In this document: piece by piece, positions 1,163-16,267 of the stretch
How the letters are laid out: every line of letters begins with the position of its first letter
How positions within the stretch are numbered: the first letter of the stretch is position 1
DNA from: an uncultured bacterium
Lineage (GTDB): Bacteria > Margulisbacteria > WOR-1 > CAVSGV01
Assembly: GCA_963699255.1 (NCBI GenBank)
Contig: OY969425.1
Coordinates: 1,530,001 to 1,562,000, forward strand
Direction of reading: 5' to 3'
DNA: 32,000 nt
The notes under the pieces: generated by a model
Databases searched by the model: none
What the model was told of the DNA's origin: nothing
The model's input: only the letters and a program-made list of their open reading frames with translations
Made by a program: the position numbers and the translations under genes

Positions 1163-2433
1163 GAACTTATTTTAACATATTCCCGGATGCCTTTATACAT
1201 TCCGTACGCCACCCGGTCCTGGAATTTCGGATCGCATATCAGCCTTTCCTCTCTCGGATTCGTGAGGTAGGCGGCTTCCACGAGGACGGACGGCATTTTT
1301 GTGTGGTGGACCGCGTAGTAGGTGACCTTTTTCACGCCCCTGTTCTTCAGCTTTATCGTCCGGCTAAGGTTCTTCTGCATTATTTTCGCGAACGTCCTGC
1401 TCCGCGGCGTGAAATAGTACGTTTCGCATCCTCCTATCCGCGGCCTCGAGTAGGCGTTCAGATGGACGGCCACAAAGATATCGGCGCGCCTGCTGTTCGC
1501 TATCCTGACGATCTCCCTGTTCCGTATGCTTACATCCCTGGTCCTTGTCATTACGACCTTTGCTCCCGCTTTCTTAAGGAACTTCTCCAGCCTCAGCGCT
1601 ATCTTCAGGGTCAGGATCTTCTCAAAAATGCCGGATTCGCTTATGAATCCCGGATCCCTTCCTCCGTGCCCCGGATCCACGACTATGGTCTTGCCCTGCA
1701 GCGTGAGCGGGATCTTGGATATCTCTACCGGCGGTATGTTCGATATCTCCACCGGCTGTATCTTTTTCACGGGCTTTTCTACTTCTTCGGGAACTTCCTC
1801 GGAGACTTCCGTTACCGGTATCGATAGCGTAGGCGCTTCCTCCACCTCGACGACGGTCGGCTTTTCCATCTTAACCGCCTCCGGAGTCACCGGCCTTATT
1901 TTTTCCGGTCTCACGGCCTCGACGGTTGACGGAGCGCTCGGCGCGACTATTTTCGTGCTTTCGGGCCTGGCCTTCGTGAATTCCAGGATGAATTTGTTCC
2001 TTCCGATTATGCTCGCGTAATCGTAGCTCAGCGTTTCGCTGGGCTCCACGATGACGTACACCGTCTTTTCGTCGAACTGCGCCGCCTGGATCATGCTGAT
2101 GAGAGAGGACGCGCCCGGCATTGTCACCGGGGCGTCGATTGAGGCGTTGGAGAATGCCAGGGCTATCCTGTTCGGCGACTCCAGCATTATTATCTCCGGC
2201 TTTATGTTCTCGGAGGTGAAGACGGAGACCTCCTCGTACGCGTCGATCTTTTTGGTTTCGACCTTGAGGATCTTCACTTTGCTATTGGCATAGCAAGGAA
2301 TGACCAATGACCAAATTCCAATGACCAAACAAATTCCAATGAGCAATGACCAATAACCAGAAGACCGTTTGAGATTTCGGATTTGGATATTGCTTGGAAC
2401 TTGGTGCTTGGTAATTGGTAATTTGCTGATCAT
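1141..2433 (-). CDS. N-acetylmuramoyl-L-alanine amidase (N-terminal membrane anchor, AMIN-like domain, Pro/Glu/Val-rich linker, Amidase_3 domain)
   Basis: 430-aa ORF. The C-terminal part reads VVDPGHGGRDPG...VAVHLNA...CETYY...VLVEAAYLTNP, typical of Amidase_3. The start ATG overlaps the cca stop (ATGA), and the 3' end overlaps the murI start by 22 nt. Confidence 0.85.
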   Translation of the reverse strand: MISKLPITKHQVPSNIQIRNLKRSSGYWSLLIGICLVIGIWSLVIPCYANSKVKILKVETKKIDAYEEVSVFTSENIKPEIIMLESPNRIALAFSNASIDAPVTMPGASSLISMIQAAQFDEKTVYVIVEPSETLSYDYASIIGRNKFILEFTKARPESTKIVAPSAPSTVEAVRPEKIRPVTPEAVKMEKPTVVEVEEAPTLSIPVTEVSEEVPEEVEKPVKKIQPVEISNIPPVEISKIPLTLQGKTIVVDPGHGGRDPGFISESGIFEKILTLKIALRLEKFLKKAGAKVVMTRTRDVSIRNREIVRIANSRRADIFVAVHLNAYSRPRIGGCETYYFTPRSRTFAKIMQKNLSRTIKLKNRGVKKVTYYAVHHTKMPSVLVEAAYLTNPREERLICDPKFQDRVAYGMYKGIREYVKISSWQRSRK

Positions 2434-3816: not shown

Positions 3817-3993
3817 GGTAATTAGGTGAGGGTAAAGAGGCCAGTATGGAAGTTGGGGTTAGGGTTGGGCCACACACTTCCAATCCTTACTTCTATACTG
3901 GCTTCCTAGCCTTTACCTAATTTTCTGGTTTTCAGGGTTGGGCCACACACGTCCAAACCTAACTTCTATACCGGCTTCCTAACCCTAACCTAA
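3817..3993 (+). repeat. Long imperfect hairpin (arms 3822-3853 / 3889-3920) followed by a second copy of the 53-nt right-arm module (3869-3921 and 3941-3993)
   Basis: In my hand pairing of the two 32-nt arms, 25 positions are Watson-Crick, 5 are G-T/T-G and 2 are mismatches. Module 3941-3993 matches the reverse complement of 13684-13736 at 49/53 positions. Confidence 0.7.
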
Positions 3994-4079
3994 TACCTAA
4001 CTTCAATAATATGGCTAAACGATGTATAATCATGCATAGCAATTGGTTATAGGTCCTTGCTTAACCAAAGCTGGTTTCT

Positions 4080-4436
4080 GGGGGTGTAAGGGTTTTGACG
4101 GGAAAGCGGGGGACCGGGTTGCGAGCCAAGGATGATACTGTCCTTGTAAAAACGTATCAAAACACAAACGCAAATCAAGAATTTGCACTTGCTGCCTAAT
4201 AAATAACGGCGGCTTCGTCTCTTAGGCCTCTTTCGGCAGGGCTTAAATAGACGTTATTTTGCCGGATACTGTTCTGCCCTGTTTGTGGAGCAGAATGGGA
4301 AAACTTTCATAAACTAGCGTAAGATGCGCCCCGCCTTGGGCATATTCTTAAGCGAACTAAAATATAAAGGACACGCTCGTAGTAACCTGATCTTATGCTT
4401 TTTCGGACGAGGGTTCGACTCCCTCCACCTCCACCA
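4080..4436 (+). ncRNA. ssrA: tmRNA (SsrA), 357 nt
   Basis: 5' GGGGGTGTAAGGGTTTTGACGGG and 3' GGACGAGGGTTCGACTCCCTCCACCTCCACCA. The 7-bp acceptor stem GGGGGUG/CACCUCC includes the G3-U pair, and a T-arm GAGGG-TTCGACT-CCCTC is present. The tag reading frame ends GCA AAT CAA GAA TTT GCA CTT GCT GCC TAA TAA (..ANQEFALAA**, 4170-4202); the resume codon is uncertain. Confidence 0.9.
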
Positions 4437-4940
4437 TGAAGTATTCCCCGCCTTCGGCAGGTAAACTTCATGGCGGGCCTTTGATATGAAATATAGCTAT
4501 CTATTCTACTTTTGTTATGGGGAATTACTTCATGGTCCACCAAGCTATAGCTTCGAATTATCGTTACAATCGATCAGATTTGTCGAGGGGAGTAGGTCGC
4601 GCAGCGACCGTTGAGGGGTGAAACCCCTCAAGGCCGGAACGCAGCCAGCTTCATAACATATCGTGGTGAGACTCCCCTCCACCTCCACCATGAAGTATTC
4701 CCCGCCTTCGGCAGGTAAACTTCATGGCGGGCCTTTGATATGAAATATAGCTATCTATTCTACTTTTGTTATGGGGAATTACTTCATGGTCCACCAAGCT
4801 ATAGCTTCGAATTATCGTTACGATCGATCAGATTTGTCGAGGGGAGTAGGTCGCGCAGCGACCGTTGAGGGGTGAAACCCCTCAAGGCCGGAACGCAGCC
4901 AGCTTCATAACATATCGTGGTGAGACTCTCCTCACCTCCA
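4417..4940 (+). repeat. Tandem duplication (period 254 bp, two units). Each unit ends in a copy of the tmRNA 3' terminus, and the third copy is degenerate.
   Basis: Unit bodies 4437-4669 and 4691-4923 differ at one base (a4568 vs g4822). GACTCCCTCCACCTCCACCA (tmRNA, 4417-4436) recurs as GACTCCCCTCCACCTCCACCA (4670-4690) and degenerately as GACTCTCCTCACCTCCA (4924-4940). Confidence 0.9.
4582..4637 (+). repeat. Twin-hairpin module GGGGAGTAG / hairpin 1 / CGTTGAGGGG-loop-CCCCTCAA, with a second copy at 4836-4891 and an inverted copy at 17514-17573
   Basis: The sequence is GTCGAGGGGAGTAG-GTCGC-GCA-GCGAC-CGTTGAGGGG-TGAAA-CCCCTCAA. The inverted copy keeps the flanks, but its hairpin-1 stem is CCCCGAC/GTCGGGG. 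Confidence 0.7.
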
Positions 4941-10848: not shown

Positions 10849-10920
10849 AGAGACTAGAAATTGGAGAGCAGAGACTGGAGAGCAGAGACTGGAGAGCAGA
10901 GACTGGAGAGCAGAGACCAG
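10849..10920 (+). repeat. tandem 14-mer GGAGAGCAGAGACT x4 (two heptamers per unit) plus one degenerate leading unit
   Basis: Perfect copies at 10863, 10877 and 10891; the fourth, at 10905, ends in C. Confidence 0.9.
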
Positions 10921-10995: not shown

Positions 10996-11445
10996 ATGAA
11001 TGAAAAAGAATTTGTGGACCAATGCTTCTCCAACAAACTGCACGGCGTTCCCGACACTATAAGCTCTTTAACGAAAGTTGTTGATGATATTACCTATATG
11101 CTTACTACTCCGGGCCTGATAAATATAACCAGAGAAGATATAAAGGAGATCGCTGATTCAAGTAAACATCTACTGGGCATCTCTGCGGAAGCAAAAGGGA
11201 GATATCGCGCGGAAACGGTGGGGCATGAGCTGGTCTCTCATTACTCAAGCGCTTTCAGCACTAAAGCAGATAGCGCTATTTTCAATGTGACCGGCAGCTC
11301 GGACCTTACATTGTACGAGGTCAACGAAATAGCCGAACAGATCTATCGCGTGGTCCATCCCAGAGCCAATTTTGTTTTTAGCGCAATAATCGACGAGAGT
11401 AAGAAGGATTATCTGAAAACGACAGTGATATTAGGGAATAATTAG
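10996..11445 (+). CDS. FtsZ C-terminal-domain-only protein (lacks the N-terminal GTP-binding domain)
   Basis: 149 aa. ..TTPGLINITREDIKEI...GISAEAKGRYRAETVGHELVS....ADSAIFNVTGSSDLTLYEVNEIAEQIYRVVHPRANFVFSAIIDESKKDYLKTTVILG is collinear with E. coli FtsZ ..TRPGLMNVDFADVRTVM...GSGVASGEDRAEEAAEMAIS...ARGVLVNITAGFDLRLDEFETVGNTIRAF...ATVVIGTSLDP..DELRVTVVATG (from memory). An SD (GAGGTGAGGG) and a TATAAT box lie upstream. Confidence 0.65.
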   Translation: MNEKEFVDQCFSNKLHGVPDTISSLTKVVDDITYMLTTPGLINITREDIKEIADSSKHLLGISAEAKGRYRAETVGHELVSHYSSAFSTKADSAIFNVTGSSDLTLYEVNEIAEQIYRVVHPRANFVFSAIIDESKKDYLKTTVILGNN

Positions 11446-11623
11446 AGCAAAGGGAAGGAAGAAGGCAGAAGTAAGAAGTAAGAAGGCTGAAGGATGAAAG
11501 AAGAAGTAAAAAGAAGCGGGTAGCAGAAGAAGAGAAAAAAGGAGAAGGCGGAAGGGAAAAGGCAGAAGGAAGAAGTAAGAAAGAAGAAATAAGAAGGACG
11601 AAGTAAGAAGGCAGAAGGGGAAA
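11446..11623 (+). repeat. ~180-nt almost pure purine tract made of degenerate GAAGNNN heptamers
   Basis: For example GAAGGCG GAAGGGA AAAGGCA GAAGGAA GAAGTAA GAAAGAA GAAATAA GAAGGAC GAAGTAA GAAGGCA GAAGGGG. It forms the left arm of the inverted repeat around the four-helix-bundle gene. Confidence 0.85.
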
Positions 11624-11986
11624 TCATATAAGATGACTGGAAGGATTTGATTTGGCGGTCTTAAGAGAGGCGACGATTATCGAAGTTATCTCGTTTGCCT
11701 CATCCAGCAAGGGCCGGACCTTTTCAGCAGGGATAAGACAACTTTCAATTATTAACTCAAGCCAATAGATCGTCTCATCCGCCTCTTCCAAAACTATCCC
11801 AAGCTTTGCGATGAACTCGACTTTTGACCTCGCCCTTAAACAGGCCCTGTAATTAGCTCCAATTGATGTGGCCGACCTTATTATCTGTTTAGCAATGACA
11901 AAAGAGGTGGTGTTTTTTGGCAGATCATTGGTGAACTTGATTATCTTTAGCGCAAACCTCTTTGTCCGGTCTTTTATCGTCTCCAT
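11624..11986 (-). CDS. four-helix-bundle protein (23S rRNA intervening-sequence protein family, PF05635/TIGR02436-like)
   Basis: 120 aa. ..IIRSATSIGANYRACLRARSKVEFIAKLGIVLEEADETIYWLELI.. matches the family signature S.GANY.EA..R.S..DF..KL.I...E..ET.YWL.L. Confidence 0.85.
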   Translation of the reverse strand: METIKDRTKRFALKIIKFTNDLPKNTTSFVIAKQIIRSATSIGANYRACLRARSKVEFIAKLGIVLEEADETIYWLELIIESCLIPAEKVRPLLDEANEITSIIVASLKTAKSNPSSHLI

Positions 11987-12016
11987 GATCTCTTCTCCCT
12001 CATTCTCATTTCATAT

Positions 12017-12107
12017 TTCTAACTTCTAACTTCTAACTTCTAACTTCTAACTTCTAACTTCTAACTTCTAACTTCTAACTTCTAACTTCTAACTTCTTAT
12101 TTCTTAC
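12017..12107 (+). repeat. tandem heptamer TTCTAAC x11 perfect, then TTCTTAT and TTCTTAC
   Basis: Direct count from 12017 to 12093. The complement reads GAAGTTA, one mismatch per unit from the GAAGTAA units of 11446-11623. Confidence 0.95.
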
Positions 12108-12646
12108 TTTATAAACCCGATCTTGCTTGGCTTTCCTGTTTTCTCAATGGTCAACTTTCGAATATCTCGTACGAGCTCGCGAATGTCGCTATCATGCTTC
12201 AAAACTCGCTTTTCCAGCTGCTCGAACTTTACGGACAATTCCTTGCTGTTCGCCATTATTTGGCGAAGCCGTGAAAATGTCCTCATTATCAGTATGTTTA
12301 CATCTATTGCTCTTTGGCTGTTTAGGACAGATGACAGCATGAGGATCCCGTGTTCCGTAAAGGCATAGGGAAGATAGCGCCTGCCGCCATATTTTAAGGC
12401 CACAAATTGTGACCTTGAACTTGAGGTTGCAAAATGCAACCTCAAGTTTTCCGCTTCATCCCTGGTTAATTGGAACATAAAATCTTCAGGGAACCTTTTT
12501 ATGTTTCTCCTAATCTGTTGATTTAGATACTTTGTTAATACTCCATAGAGGCCTGCTAAATCCATATCCAGCATCACTTTTTGCCCGCGGATGACATATA
12601 TCTTATTTTCGATCAATTCGATCGGAACTATTTCCATTTCATTCAT
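12104..12646 (-). CDS. ORF6N (KilA-N-like) domain DNA-binding protein
   Basis: IRGQKVMLDMDLAGLYGV.TKYLNQQIRRNIKRFPEDFMFQL...RSQFVALKYGGRRYLPYAFTEHGILMLSSVLNS.RAI.VNI.IMR.F. I chose the start at M14 (12646) because AAGGAG lies 8 nt upstream. Confidence 0.8.
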   Translation of the reverse strand: MNEMEIVPIELIENKIYVIRGQKVMLDMDLAGLYGVLTKYLNQQIRRNIKRFPEDFMFQLTRDEAENLRLHFATSSSRSQFVALKYGGRRYLPYAFTEHGILMLSSVLNSQRAIDVNILIMRTFSRLRQIMANSKELSVKFEQLEKRVLKHDSDIRELVRDIRKLTIEKTGKPSKIGFIK

Positions 12647-12756
12647 GATAATTGCTCCTTTTACGATAGTATCAGCAATTAACATGCCAGGAAAGTGAAC
12701 TCAAGTATTTATATTTGTTGTTGGGGGATTCGACAGTTGTAGAGGATTAAGGCAGA

Positions 12757-12857
12757 GGAGGAGACCAGAGATCAGAGACCTGAGACCTGAGACAAGAGAC
12801 CAGAGACTAGAGACCTGAGACCCGAAATCTGATCTCCGGTCTCCAGTCTCTAATCTC
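12757..12857 (+). repeat. heptamer-built hairpin: (AGACNNG)x9 left arm, shorter complementary right arm CTGATCTCCGGTCTCCAGTCTCTAATCTC
   Basis: The sequence splits as AGACCAG AGATCAG AGACCTG AGACCTG AGACAAG AGACCAG AGACTAG AGACCTG AGACCCG / ATCTCCG GTCTCCA GTCTCTA ATCTCAT. The right arm resembles 14547-14576. Confidence 0.8.
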
Positions 12858-13626
12858 ATTCCACGATCCTAATCGTCCAGAAGTCATCAGCCAAATTCTC
12901 GTTCTCAAGGTATTCATATGGCAAAGTAAAATATCCCTTCATTCCCCAGCCGGGGCCCCAGGAATTCCGAACAATAAAAAACCGATTTTCATCGTCATAT
13001 CCGACAGCCATTACCGCATGCCCGCCTTCCATCCTTTCATCCGGCCCGGGCATACTTGCGTGCCCGGTCTTTGCCACGGCCTGGGTCATGAAACTCTCAT
13101 ACACGGAAAATCCGAACACGAACGGGTATCCCGACGCAATACAGCCTTTCATCTGGTTGGCGAGCCGGCTTACACGCTGGTATAAAACAACCTTGTGCTT
13201 CACGGCATTCTGATAGCACGATTCCGAAGGCTTCTGGGCGAATTTCGCGATATCATACTGCCATAACTTCTCGGGACAATCACCCTGCTTCCCCACACTC
13301 TTGATCCCATCCCTGATCTGCGCGCCGCTGTCGGAGCTGACGGAGTGCTCCATCACGCGCTCGTTATAGTAAATGAACAGGCGGGAAGGCATGAAGTATT
13401 TTTCCTTCTGCTTTATCTGCTCGAATTCCATCGCCGCAGCTATGGCGTTCGCCGTGCAGCTGCCCAGCTGGCCCTGATCGTATATATCAGGACATTGGGA
13501 GCGCAGATCGACTTTCGCCGGAAGCTTCGCGATCCATTCCAGAGGCGCAGCATACGAGTGATCCCGGCTGTCCGGGACATCCGGCAGCCAGCCGAAGGAT
13601 CTTATTAGTTTAGCTTCAGCGCTCAT
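12856..13626 (-). CDS. C1 (papain-like) cysteine peptidase, with no signal peptide or long propeptide
   Basis: 256 aa with DQGQLGSCTANA (catalytic Cys), GGHAVMAVGYDD (His) and VRNSWGPGWGMKGYF. Confidence 0.85.
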   Translation of the reverse strand: MSAEAKLIRSFGWLPDVPDSRDHSYAAPLEWIAKLPAKVDLRSQCPDIYDQGQLGSCTANAIAAAMEFEQIKQKEKYFMPSRLFIYYNERVMEHSVSSDSGAQIRDGIKSVGKQGDCPEKLWQYDIAKFAQKPSESCYQNAVKHKVVLYQRVSRLANQMKGCIASGYPFVFGFSVYESFMTQAVAKTGHASMPGPDERMEGGHAVMAVGYDDENRFFIVRNSWGPGWGMKGYFTLPYEYLENENLADDFWTIRIVE

Positions 13627-13683
13627 GTTTTTTCGGGGATATTATAAGCCTTTCTTGGGGAAGGAGACAAGGTCATTTGGAAA

Positions 13684-13783
13684 ATTAGGTGAGGGTTAGG
13701 AAGCCGGTATAGAAGTTAGGATTGGAAGTGCGTGGCCTAACATCTTAACCTAACCACCATACCGGTATCTTTACCTTCACCTA
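13684..13783 (+). repeat. long imperfect hairpin of the same family as 3817-3993
   Basis: The left arm 13684-13736 is the reverse complement of 3941-3993 (49/53). The right arm CCTAACCACCATACCGGTATCTTTACCTTCACCTAA pairs with it imperfectly. Confidence 0.75.
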
Positions 13784-13987
13784 ACAACCATTTTCAGAAT
13801 TGAACTGGTCACAATTTGTGACCGGTTGTCGAAATAGGCGACTATTGTCAGAAAACGCTACAAATACACATCAAATTTGGCTCAATTTACGTATGGTATA
13901 TTGGCAAAATAATTGCTGCTATTATCCTTAAGAGGATCCTTTTGGAAAGAGGTGGTGCCAATTTGGCACCACCTATCGGAGGCAAAT

Positions 13988-14516
13988 ATGTCAGATGCAC
14001 TCGTTACTCAAGAAACAATTGAAAGCAGAATACTCGTCATAAGAGGCCATAAGGTGATGATTGATAGAGATTTGGCGGAATTGTATGGAGTTTCGACTAA
14101 GAGATTGAATGAACAGGTAAAAAGGAACATTGAAAGATTCCCAGCAAACTTCATGTTTCAACTGTCAGAACAGGAAAAATTAGAGGTGGTCGCAATTTGC
14201 GACCACCTATCTGATCTCAGATTTTCACATCAATTACCCTATGCTTTTACCGAGCATGGGGTAGCCATGCTATCCAGCGTCTTAAATAGCGATAGGGCTG
14301 TCAAAATGAGCATATTTATCATCAATACTTTTATCCGCCTAAGACAGATACCTGTATAGCCATAAAGAATTATCAGAAAAACTGGATAAGGTCGAAGAAA
14401 GAGTGCTGCTTCATGATAAAGCGATAATTGCGATCGATCATGCGATATCAGAACTGTCCGCGCCTAAACCGGGCAAAGAAAAGAAAATAGGGTTTATTAA
14501 AGAGGGAGGAGAATAG
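13988..14516 (+). pseudogene. ORF6N domain gene, frameshifted near 14350-14360 (or a sequencing error)
   Basis: The ATG at 13988 follows GGAGG. IRGHKVMIDRDLAELYGVSTKRLNEQVKRNIERFPANFMFQL...LPYAFTEHGVAMLSSVLNSDRAV..IFIINTFIRLRQI is followed by a stop. Another frame then continues HKELSEKLDKVEERVLLHDKAI...KPGKEKKIGFIKEGGE*, which matches the tail of the 12104 paralog. The 529-nt length is not a multiple of 3. Confidence 0.75.
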
Positions 14517-14573
14517 AGACCTGAGATCAGAGAGTAAGAGATATTTAGTCTCTGGTCTCCGATCTCTAATCTC
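14515..14573 (+). repeat. heptamer-built hairpin AGAGACCTGAGATCAGAGAGTAAGAG / ATATTT / AGTCTCTGGTCTCCGATCTCTAATCTC
   Basis: Dyad symmetry is visible by eye. The right arm is similar to 12829-12857. Confidence 0.75.
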
Positions 14574-14590
14574 ATTGGAATAACGGAGGT

Positions 14591-15052: not shown

Positions 15053-15514
15053 CTAACTCTTAATTTCCTTGATATGGCTTTCGACAAGGTCGATGAAGGC
15101 CTGAGCCTGTTCGGGGGTAAGGTTGCTTTCAAGAAGATCGGCCAGCGCTTCCCAGGCTTCCGCTTCTTCCATCAGCTCTTTGTTGCTCTTTATCTCATCA
15201 AGCACCGCGTCTATCTCTTTCTGCATCCTCTTGTTAACTTCTTCCATCGCGGCCTCGGGATTCGTCATTCCCGTTTCCTCTATGGCGCGCTCGATTATGT
15301 CTCCCATCGAAAGCTCTCTCTCTTTCGCTTCCATCGCCAGAGCCGCGAAACGGACAGCCATCGCGTGGGAATCAAGGGCCTGTAATCCTTTTTCGCCGCC
15401 TTTGGTCGGCGTGGGCAGGGCAGGGCGCGTGGTTTCTGTCCTTTCCTCTTTCTTCGGAGGGACCGGCGGTACTGCCGGAGGGGTAATGCCTGAAGGCGGT
15501 ATATTGATTCCCAT
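15053..15514 (-). CDS. hypothetical protein (Pro-rich N-terminus, acidic helical C-terminus)
   Basis: 153 aa. An SD (GAGGT) and a TATAAT box (15532-15537) lie upstream. Its 3' end is duplicated at 10743-10788. Confidence 0.6.
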   Translation of the reverse strand: MGINIPPSGITPPAVPPVPPKKEERTETTRPALPTPTKGGEKGLQALDSHAMAVRFAALAMEAKERELSMGDIIERAIEETGMTNPEAAMEEVNKRMQKEIDAVLDEIKSNKELMEEAEAWEALADLLESNLTPEQAQAFIDLVESHIKEIKS

Positions 15515-15599
15515 GGTTTTACCTCGGGGAGATTATATATAAATATGTTGCCGAAGGCAACACCTTAATTGGTCATTGTGTAATTGTTAATTGTTAATT

Positions 15600-15803
15600 T
15601 TAAAGGTCGCCTTTTATGACGGTTTTTACTAGCAGCTTGGAGAGGTTCGCTATTGCCGAATCCGGGAGTTTTTTCCCGATGTCATCGTCCTTCAGGATCT
15701 GTTTTGTCGCATCCAGAAGGTCCTGCATCGTGTATGTCTTTTTCCCGCCTTCGCCCTGGTTTTGGCCGCGTGACGCGGGGGCCTGTTGATATGATTTGCT
15801 CAT
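15600..15803 (-). CDS. hypothetical small protein, translationally coupled to smpB
   Basis: 67 aa. Its ATG overlaps the smpB stop (ATGA at 15800-15803). Confidence 0.45.
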
Positions 15804-16267
15804 TTTTTCTTCTGCCTGTCCGCGAAAGCTCTCTCTACCTCCCGCGCCGCTTCTTTTTTCTTGATCTTTTCCCTCTTCTCATACTCTTTCTTGGATTTCG
15901 CGAGCGCAAGGTCGACTTTCACCCAGTTATCCATCAAGTATAGCTTAAGGGGAATTAAAGTTAAACCTTTTTCTTGAACGCGCCCGATCAGCTTCTTCAT
16001 CTCGCCCTTGTTCAGCAGGAGCTTGCGCTCCCTTATCGGGTTCAGGTTGTAACGCCCTCCCTGCTCATAGGGGCTTATGTGCATGTTGTAAAGCCAGATC
16101 TCGCCGTTCTCCACCCGGCCGAAACTGTCCTTGAGGTTCGCTTTTCCCAGCCGTATCGATTTAACTTCCGTGCCCTTAAGGGCTATTCCCGCCTGGAATG
16201 TTTCCAGTACCGTGTAGTCGAAGAACGCTTTGCGGTTTTCTGCCAGGACCTTTTTATAGCGCGGCAT
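15800..16267 (-). CDS. smpB: SsrA-binding protein
   Basis: 155 aa. ..[38 protein letters not shown]......[14 protein letters not shown]...N..P.R.RKLLL...E..KL is a typical SmpB sequence. Confidence 0.9.

Follow-up and report, generated by a model that had tools for sequence, protein, structure and literature searches.

The locus described here raises the question of why a gene of the type found in the intervening sequences (IVSs) of 23S rRNA should lie between two arrays of heptamer repeats in a protein-coding region. IVSs of 23S rRNA sit in helix 9, 25 or 45, their cleavage by RNase III has been demonstrated in Leptospira and Salmonella, and their origin and purpose have been a question since about 1990. 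The gene in question encodes a four-helix-bundle (4HB) protein of the PF05635/TIGR02436 family and was found in a 32,000-nt stretch of DNA from an uncultured bacterium of the Margulisbacteria (contig OY969425.1, positions 1,530,001 to 1,562,000), hereafter the window, in which all coordinates are given. Among named homologues of its Obg protein, the nearest comes from Candidatus Margulisiibacteriota with 66% identity, which gives a rough placement. Our preferred answer, to which we assign a probability of roughly 0.62, is that the element is an IVS-type cassette in an mRNA context, that is, a promoterless PF05635 open reading frame (ORF) between inverted heptamer arrays behind an ORF6N-domain gene. 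This reading is favoured because the RNase III-excised IVS of Coxiella burnetii also has tandem heptamers before its 4HB ORF.

The cassette in the window

The 4HB gene (11624–11986, minus strand) encodes 120 amino acids and scored above the curated cut-offs of both family profiles, with 72.5 bits against PF05635 (E 4e-20; cut-off 33.8) and 95.4 bits against TIGR02436 (E 2e-27; cut-off 24). PDB entry 2RLD, which has five chains, was matched at E 2.6e-23 with the single sequence and at 3.4e-30 with a profile. On these matches the window protein is a member of the PF05635/TIGR02436 family with a relative of solved pentameric four-helix-bundle structure.

The 5' arm (12017–12109, minus strand) consists of 13 GAAGTTA units on the sense strand, which read TTCTAAC on the plus strand and were reported by Tandem Repeats Finder (TRF) as 13.3 copies with 96% matches. 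Its first unit lies at the stop codon of the ORF6N gene and the 13 units stop 30 nt ahead of the 4HB ATG, leaving a spacer (11987–12016, minus strand) with a Shine-Dalgarno-like GAGGGAG. The 3' arm (11446–11620, minus strand) extends over ~175 nt and, read on the sense strand, is made of about 24 degenerate NNNCTTC heptamers, which form a purine tract on the plus strand; TRF gave a period of 7 across 11454–11618 with just 68% matches, and the arm is bounded by the stop codon of a convergent FtsZ_C-like ORF. A PF05635/TIGR02436 gene between two inverted 7-nt tracts is what a sequence-only reading of this DNA had described, and profile matches, TRF and the inverted-repeat arms bear it out. Its 13 copies of TTCTAAC were recovered as well, and its ~180-nt near-pure purine tract of GAAGTAA-like heptamers held for period and approximate length and proved more degenerate. 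The long arms (13 perfect and ~24 degenerate units) probably arose when slippage recently expanded arms of the usual ~5 units, and a Logan assembly contig encoding the same protein (L001) is interrupted inside the 5' arm array.

The ORF6N-domain gene (12104–12646, minus strand; PF10543, E 1e-34), which is also the PADLOC candidate PDC-S05 (E 1e-56), is the host or partner gene directly 5' of the cassette on the same strand. Its true start is likely the ATG at 12646, because AAAGGAGCAATTATC-ATG is conserved and common to the window and to the related contig L002. The 4HB gene is second in a conserved ORF6N-4HB pair, and the TTCTAAC array, which starts at the ORF6N stop, thus represents an intra-operon spacer; a promoter and terminator scan predicted no promoter-like or terminator-like site between the two genes.

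The arms are inverted repeats of each other, with a best stretch of 45–60 nt at 73–80% complementarity and a mismatch rate of ~1.4–1.9 per heptamer instead of the one per heptamer first estimated. RNAduplex paired about 110 nt of each flank in short helices split by small internal loops, at –76.7 kcal/mol compared with –55.5 for dinucleotide shuffles (z –5.2 for the sense and –2.7 for the antisense strand). The flanks thus form a duplex stabler than shuffled sequence, as had been anticipated, and the proposed stem of at least 90 nt with the ORF in its loop survives as an extent of pairing and fails as a structure, no uninterrupted 90-nt helix being found between them.

The window element therefore shows terminal inverted repeats able to enclose the ORF in a stem, and tandem heptamers 5' of the ORF start as in Coxiella. 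It does not lie inside a 23S rRNA gene: an Rfam scan of the window returned tmRNA only and the neighbouring genes are protein-coding, which agrees with the initial placement away from rRNA. The Coxiella 23S rRNA IVS is 428–444 nt long and has a 28-bp terminal stem with an S23p (PF05635) ORF in the loop, which is excised by RNase III (PMC4990558). Its 5' region contains a Shine-Dalgarno-like sequence, tandem GACAGAT and one degenerate heptamer followed by the ATG; strains have either 3 or 2 full GACAGAT repeats, the 5' cut of RNase III falls at the start of the first repeat, and the ORF is decaying (PMC4990558). When rephased, GACAGAT reads GATGACA and fits the GA-type consensus of the family arms described below; a genuine IVS thus includes a stem built of heptamers. 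The IVS-like architecture suggested at the outset is supported by this comparison. The IVSs of Leptospira and Coxiella resemble the window element in ORF family, in an ORF looped between terminal inverted repeats and in GA-type heptamers 5' of the ATG, and further in variable copy number, a decay-prone ORF and an embedded position with co-transcription in the host transcript (for Coxiella, PMC4990558; presumed for the window). In contrast, the window element lies outside rRNA genes, past a protein-coding gene in a defence-type island; its arms greatly exceed those of the IVSs in length (13 and ~24 units versus 3–4) and are less complementary, and RNase III excision would apply to it by analogy only.

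Heptamer arms in close and distant relatives

The search for relatives of the window protein placed 2686 of 2699 scored candidates at E ≤ 1e-5. The close relatives, on contigs L002, L003, L004–L008 and L009–L013, have 4HB proteins with 72–91% amino acid identity to that of the window, and all of them carry (GAAGNNN)n arrays of 5–6 units abutting the ATG and (NNNCTTC)n arrays starting 0–10 nt past the stop codon. Each of these loci has an ORF6N gene on the same strand as its immediate upstream neighbour, as have L018 and L094; downstream, the close relatives show four different contexts (SnoaL, DndB-linked, MmeI-type restriction-modification (RM) and AEP-like genes). Between the window and L002, DNA homology and synteny stop inside the 3' arm, which provides partial presence/absence evidence for the window copy.

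Two loci uncouple the arm unit from the ORF6N gene. A second ORF6N-4HB pair in L009 (L009b) has a canonical PF05635 4HB protein only 26% identical to that of the window and arms of AAGGTAN upstream and NTACCTT downstream. In L094, the ORF6N gene is 79% identical to that of the window and the 4HB protein is a canonical PF05635 member without BLASTP similarity to the window protein; its 5' arm reads GAGAATG GAGACCA GAGACTG GAGATCG and its 3' arm (NNGTCTC)x13, giving arm units of GAGACNN/NNGTCTC. Both the PF05635 and the PF22296 profiles match the L094 and L009b proteins. Because these two loci carry other units beside homologous ORF6N genes, the arm unit is seen, in the contigs compared, to track the 4HB subtype and not the ORF6N gene or the genome, each pair of arms being mutually complementary. 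The L009 contig (3175–9586; also L010 and L011) has two convergent ORF6N-4HB pairs with different arm units that bracket AEP-like and MmeI-type RM genes, the whole flanked by housekeeping genes, and this arrangement looks like a bounded defence module. ORF6N was rejected as a general partner of 4HB genes: it lies upstream in one of 80 distant 4HB loci, and a 4HB gene was found downstream in one of 55 determinable ORF6N homologues (~50–60% identity; the narrow hidden Markov model misses divergent subtypes). On this evidence the ORF6N-4HB pairing is specific to the clade of the window.

The distant loci come from a survey in which one genome per species was scanned, yielding 80 loci with 4HB proteins 49–63% identical to that of the window. 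They span more than 10 phyla and groups among them include Planctomycetota, Acidobacteriota, Verrucomicrobiota, Bacteroidota, Chloroflexota, Nostoc, Nitrospirota, Desulfobacterota and Patescibacteria, with others. A majority have a 7-nt array upstream and its reverse complement downstream, with a unit that varies by locus, as in GATTTTA/TAAAATC (Nostoc), GATTGCC/GGCAATC, GAATGCG/CGCATTC, GATCGGGT/ACCCGATC, GATGGCA/TGCCATC and AAATAGT/ACTATTT. The inverted alignment of a locus to its own flank exceeded the 99th percentile of shuffles in 48/80 loci and that of pairings with other loci in 27/80, the figure for direct orientation being 11/80. Complementary flanking arrays, which had been put forward as a check on the first interpretation, are thus carried by all close relatives, by these 48 distant loci and by members on named cyanobacterial and Azospirillum plasmids.

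Arms in the survey measured 33 nt at the median and were 87% identical, ending a median of 28 nt before the ATG and beginning a median of 17 nt past the stop codon. Period-7 arrays occurred at 1.38/kb within 200 nt of the gene and at 0.05/kb elsewhere in the same loci (28-fold); the sole other enriched period was 8 (0.32 versus 0.014/kb), and periods 5, 6, 9 and 10 were essentially absent. Polarity was strongly fixed, as G exceeded C in 33/35 upstream arrays (p 4e-8) and C exceeded G in 26/28 downstream arrays. The upstream neighbour was co-oriented in 71/77 loci, with a median spacer of 58 nt that is filled mostly by the arm, and the downstream neighbour in 54/72; four loci adjoin tRNA genes on the same strand. 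The predicted RNA duplex reached z < –3 in 33/80 loci. By comparison of these loci, the arm-ORF-arm arrangement is shown to be a family-wide unit with fixed polarity and co-varying arms, co-oriented behind the upstream gene. As a separate observation, one Chloroflexota metagenome-assembled genome (L045, 2291–4615) has at least five additional period-7 arrays whose G+C-rich units are unrelated (GCGGTGG, CCCGGCT, GTCGTCA, AACGCAG and others), and some genomes appear saturated with such arrays. A pattern-based search of viral contigs for canonical PF05635 found no relatives, and the degenerate SISANIAEG pattern retrieved a phage tail protein only.

For the IVS-type cassette we propose that the promoterless ORF would be transcribed by read-through from the upstream gene, and that pairing between the arms would then give an imperfect stem, roughly three helical turns long, whose loop contains the ORF. 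By analogy with the 23S IVSs of Coxiella, Leptospira and Salmonella, RNase III may cut this stem; the cut would free the RNA of the ORF and divide the host transcript at one set position. Several observations weigh against this proposal. The arms of the window are merely 73–80% complementary, and a fold of the whole region (676 nt), in which the minimum free energy structure does pair the flanks, reached a z of just –2.2. About 40% of the relatives have no detectable inverted pair, and in a few loci (Pseudanabaena, Gemmatirosa and L092) the arrays are direct instead of inverted. Mismatches between arms showed no G-U bias for either strand (45 versus 44 of 224), and sense and antisense duplex energies did not differ (p 0.35); the mismatches and energies therefore do not tell selection for RNA pairing apart from selection for complementarity of the DNA as such. 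Targeting to one strand of replication could be another cause of the co-orientation.

The structure of the unit itself points to a different, though compatible, function of the arms. The consensus is G-A-T-T-[T/G]-[C/T]-N, with GA present in 31/33 period-7 upstream arrays, and resolves into a 4-nt core followed by three variable bases; the core is GATT in 16/45 upstream arrays and otherwise GAAG, GAAT or GATG. Five cores per arm was the mode (30/74 arms), with four in 19 and six in 9, and arm lengths clustered at 31–34 nt on both sides. The lengths of 5' and 3' arms were not significantly correlated (rho 0.28, p 0.11), since the majority of arms lie close to 32 nt, a length equal to 4x7+4. The family is homopentameric, as seen in the five chains of 2RLD and in the pentamer of the family member Xcc0516 (PMC4990558, PMC3936711). 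A period of strictly 7 and rarely 8, a conserved core, a modal five cores and a homopentamer together suggest that the protein binds the arrays, one heptamer core per subunit, on single-stranded RNA or DNA. The arms may then be primarily protein-binding arrays through which the 4HB protein would autoregulate its own translation or mark the element, comparable to TRAP-type ring proteins, and the lack of a G-U signature of RNA pairing would fit. That unit type tracks the 4HB subtype and not the host genome or ORF6N partner is also in accord with such binding, but is equally expected from simple co-inheritance. Moreover, setting five cores against five subunits amounts to numerology, the number of units ranges from 3 to 16 and is just 3–4 in Coxiella, and the complementary arm would present an RNA binder with a different motif. 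As the primary role of the arms we regard protein binding as possible but doubtful.

Empty sites, gain and loss

Canonical PF05635 genes were also found on named plasmids with the cassette layout kept. These include pNPUN01 of Nostoc punctiforme with CAGGAGT-type arms, a plasmid of Picosynechococcus PCC 7003 (L178) on which GGAGATA/TATCTCC arms frame a cassette between cas10 and cmr3, and a plasmid of Azospirillum lipoferum with GAGGACG arms; a further cassette in Geminocystis has AAGGGAA/TTCCCTT arms. Exceptions were the plasmid of Pseudanabaena galeata (L181), where the 4HB gene lies between cas6 and cas4 with direct and not inverted arrays, the Gemmatirosa locus, likewise with direct arrays, and both copies in PCC 7120, which adjoin insertion sequence (IS) elements and retain the downstream array alone. 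The cassettes of Geminocystis and Nostoc edaphicum share ~72% DNA identity amid different neighbours and differ in their arms (AAGGGAA/TTCCCTT versus ACAGGGA/TCCCTGT), so that both arms have changed in concert.

Related replicons without the cassette were identified for three insertions. On pAQ6 of PCC 7002, cas10 and cmr3 are 93% identical to those of PCC 7003 and are separated by a 12–24-nt junction in place of ~430 bp of arm-4HB-arm. In a Nostoc operon of three genes (A-B-C), pNPUN01 and pNPUN02 carry the cassette exactly in the A|B junction, and pNsp_c of Nostoc ATCC 53789 carries a different 4HB gene with (GGGAAAA)x5 and (TTTTCCC)x5 arms exactly in B|C; the empty junctions, 'TAG att ATG' and 'TAA ATG', are found on pC052_B of Nostoc C052 and pNFSY08 of N. 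flagelliforme. No arrays are present at the empty sites, neither at cas10|cmr3 of PCC 7002 nor at the empty Nostoc junctions, and the arms consequently belong to the cassette. Arm-ORF-arm is thus shown to be gained or lost as a whole unit at exact gene-gene junctions, and presence/absence polymorphism with exact boundaries in related replicons was found for members of the family. The mobile cassette that had been suspected from the window is supported by these Picosynechococcus and Nostoc plasmids. Insertion of an ORF into a pre-existing host hairpin is disfavoured by the array-free empty sites and by an arm unit that follows the 4HB subtype. Genes annotated 23S_rRNA_IVP have been reported in cas loci (PMC3936711, PMC10910872); because the cas10-cmr3 junction of PCC 7002 exists without the cassette, their 'association' with CRISPR-Cas and defence loci may consist of insertions and not of a functional partnership.

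ORF-less and ORF-decayed versions of the cassette exist as well. Within the window, one ORF-less hairpin (12750–12860, minus strand; –52.2 kcal/mol) has the form (GAGACNN)4, loop, (NNGTCTC)9 and lies directly past the stop codon of a Peptidase_C1 gene with the GA arm first. Another (14495–14580, plus strand; –33.5 kcal/mol) has (GAGANNN)5, a 7-nt loop and four complementary units, and lies directly past a second, frameshifted ORF6N gene, again with the GA arm first. The two have a 28-nt end in common, and their GAGACNN unit is the arm unit of the L094 cassette; at the orthologous site of L002 the 14495–14580 hairpin is absent and a small palindrome is present instead. Short-loop hairpins that share their unit with the 4HB arms of the locus were found in L019, L031, L049, L054 and L058, and decayed copies in L079, with a truncated 4HB gene between arms, and in Nostoc L063, with a frameshifted one. 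Of four ORF-less heptamer hairpins listed from the letters of the window, those at 12757–12857 and 14515–14573 therefore remain, and those at 3817–3993 and 13684–13783 belong to an unrelated repeat. This repeat of ~58 nt is present in three copies (3868–3925, 3941–3994 and 13680–13737; 89–93% identical) and builds palindromic hairpins of ~100 nt (e.g. 13675–13795, –48 kcal/mol); it makes up a REP/MITE-like family that is separate from the heptamer arrays.

Gain and loss of the whole unit, arms included, at exact junctions would also be expected if the arms were DNA-level terminal inverted repeats of a transposable cassette, mobilised in trans or via single-stranded DNA hairpins comparable to integron attC sites and IS200/IS605 ends, with the RNA stem incidental. 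The same-unit ORF-less hairpins resemble non-autonomous derivatives, an indel separates the window from L002 at one solo hairpin, and the strand-symmetric mismatches of the arms fit such an origin. A possible target duplication of ~10 bp, including the gene A stop codon, was noted in pNPUN01/02; it occurs in one insertion lineage, is weak evidence, and is not seen in the other two empty-site cases. Furthermore, the cassette encodes no recombinase or nuclease, none is consistently adjacent, and the co-orientation, stronger with the upstream than with the downstream neighbour, better fits dependence on transcription. We consider purely DNA-level transposition unlikely on balance.

The number of units can change at one site, with 8 in pNPUN01 and 5 in pNPUN02, it varies among Coxiella strains (PMC4990558), and the 13 perfect copies of the window stand against 5–6 units in relatives. 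Slippage-prone arrays could accordingly act as a contingency locus in which changes in copy number adjust the expression of the 4HB gene or its neighbours or make it phase-variable. This would leave the complementary second arm, the fixed polarity, whole-unit gain and loss and the tight modal length unexplained; copy-number change is more likely a by-product, and we judge a contingency role very improbable. Chance juxtaposition in a genome rich in intergenic heptamer microsatellites could draw on the other arrays of other units in the window (2299–2423, 10862–10917, 12750–12860, 14495–14580 and 15565–15603), but is effectively refuted by the 28-fold enrichment of period-7 arrays beside 4HB genes, locus-specific own-flank complementarity and conserved polarity, in more than 10 phyla and three divergent 4HB subtypes.

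Neighbourhood, comparable systems and meaning

The cassette of the window lies in an accessory island of ~11 kb between the tmRNA gene (ssrA, 4080–4436) and smpB (15800–16267, opposite strand), which contains a DpnII-like restriction-modification pair, an OLD-family ATPase, the papain-like peptidase (Peptidase_C1) and the second, frameshifted ORF6N gene. The tmRNA tag is ANQEFALAA, and a 254-bp unit of 2.1 copies with 98% identity (4417–4940) starts within the tmRNA 3' end; the ssrA-smpB stretch has the appearance of an island, or of several, inserted at ssrA. The ORF convergent on the cassette (10996–11445, 149 amino acids) matches the FtsZ C-terminal domain alone (PF12327, E 2e-13) and represents a fragment or, alternatively, an independent FtsZ_C protein of the island. 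The second ORF6N gene (13913–14516) is split by a frameshift into 13913–14359 and 14343–14516 and has the ORF-less GAGANNN hairpin at its 3' side and no 4HB cassette.

Other repeats were noted in the window. A perfect 14-mer in four copies (TGGAGAGCAGAGAC; 10862–10917), with two GAGA-type heptamers per unit and no complementary partner nearby, sits between the OLD-family ATPase gene and the FtsZ_C-like ORF, and contig L001 terminates in it. At 2299–2423, a hairpin-like pair of arrays, (AATGACC)n followed by (TTGGTNA)n, lies between amidase and CCA-adding-enzyme genes; TTGGTCA is the unit of the cyanobacterial short tandemly repeated repetitive (STRR) sequence STRR2. A short TTAATTG array of 5.6 copies (15565–15603) separates a 153-aa ORF without a Pfam match (15053–15514) from smpB. 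Palindromes of the form TCRCAAWTTGYGA (e.g. ggtcacaatttgtgacc) recur beside ORF6N genes, often directly past the stop codon (13806–13826 in the window, ~940–960 and ~2140 in L002, and past the ORF6N stop in many of L096–L168), and may be a terminator or a site for the ORF6N DNA-binding domain. A conserved GATAATTGCTG motif was also observed 5' of ORF6N starts.

The arm-ORF-arm cassette shares individual features with several known systems. The accessory variability determinant of diversity-generating retroelements (DGRs), bAvd, belongs to a homologous four-helix-bundle pentamer family (PMC10053308). The island differs from a DGR in having no reverse transcriptase among its ORFs scanned against Pfam, and an Avd reading was rejected as no window ORF scanned in this way matched a reverse-transcriptase family; no template/variable repeat pair was noticed in the window, where no dedicated search was run, the sole long repeat being that at 4417–4940 by the tmRNA gene. 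Framing by heptamer arrays is not known for Avd genes. RAYT/REPIN systems likewise have a small gene framed by an inverted short repeat that is also found elsewhere as ORF-less hairpins, but 4HB is no known transposase or nuclease and its repeats are tandem heptamer arrays and not single palindromes. Integron cassettes are similar in being promoterless ORFs that lie co-directionally downstream of a promoter outside the cassette and are delimited by an imperfect palindrome, whereas here no integrase or attC-type site is present and the palindrome is split into arms on either side of the ORF. The TAACTGA direct repeats (STRR-like) are tandem 7-nt intergenic repeats of cyanobacteria and Beggiatoaceae, mostly forward and just upstream of gene starts (PMC4679880). 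Rotated, TAACTGA reads GATAACT and is of GA type, and the phylogenetic ranges overlap (Cyanobacteria, Bacteroidota); in contrast to 4HB arms, these repeats have been described as direct arrays that lack a complementary partner, and a text search of PMC4679880 found no link to PF05635.

A literature search, with subscription journals outside its coverage, returned the Coxiella IVS paper alone as linking the family to heptamer arrays, and within the same coverage no description of PF05635 genes as generally framed by inverted heptamers or as operon-junction cassettes. An IVS-type element outside rRNA, and the family-wide generalisation drawn here, appear to be unreported.

More speculatively, PF05635 proteins could be the cognate partners of a widespread but unrecognised class of heptamer-array hairpins. 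The pentamer would bind to arms of five units in its own cassette and in ORF-less copies elsewhere in the genome and drive their spread into transcribed gene junctions and rRNA and tRNA operons, possibly via an RNA intermediate, as Avd assists a reverse transcriptase. We hold this to be clearly unlikely; if true, it would explain the origin of rRNA IVSs and at least part of the STRR-like intergenic heptamer repeats of cyanobacteria and other phyla.

In summary, 'four helix bundle protein' is a widespread bacterial annotation without an assigned function, and relatives were found here in more than 10 phyla. The heptamer-armed cassette is located at mRNA operon junctions, beside tRNA genes and inside cas operons in many phyla, and natural pairs of occupied and empty sites in culturable cyanobacteria make RNase III processing, binding of the protein to the repeats and mobility directly testable. 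On this view, a general selfish or regulatory cassette would have the rRNA IVS as one of its insertion niches.

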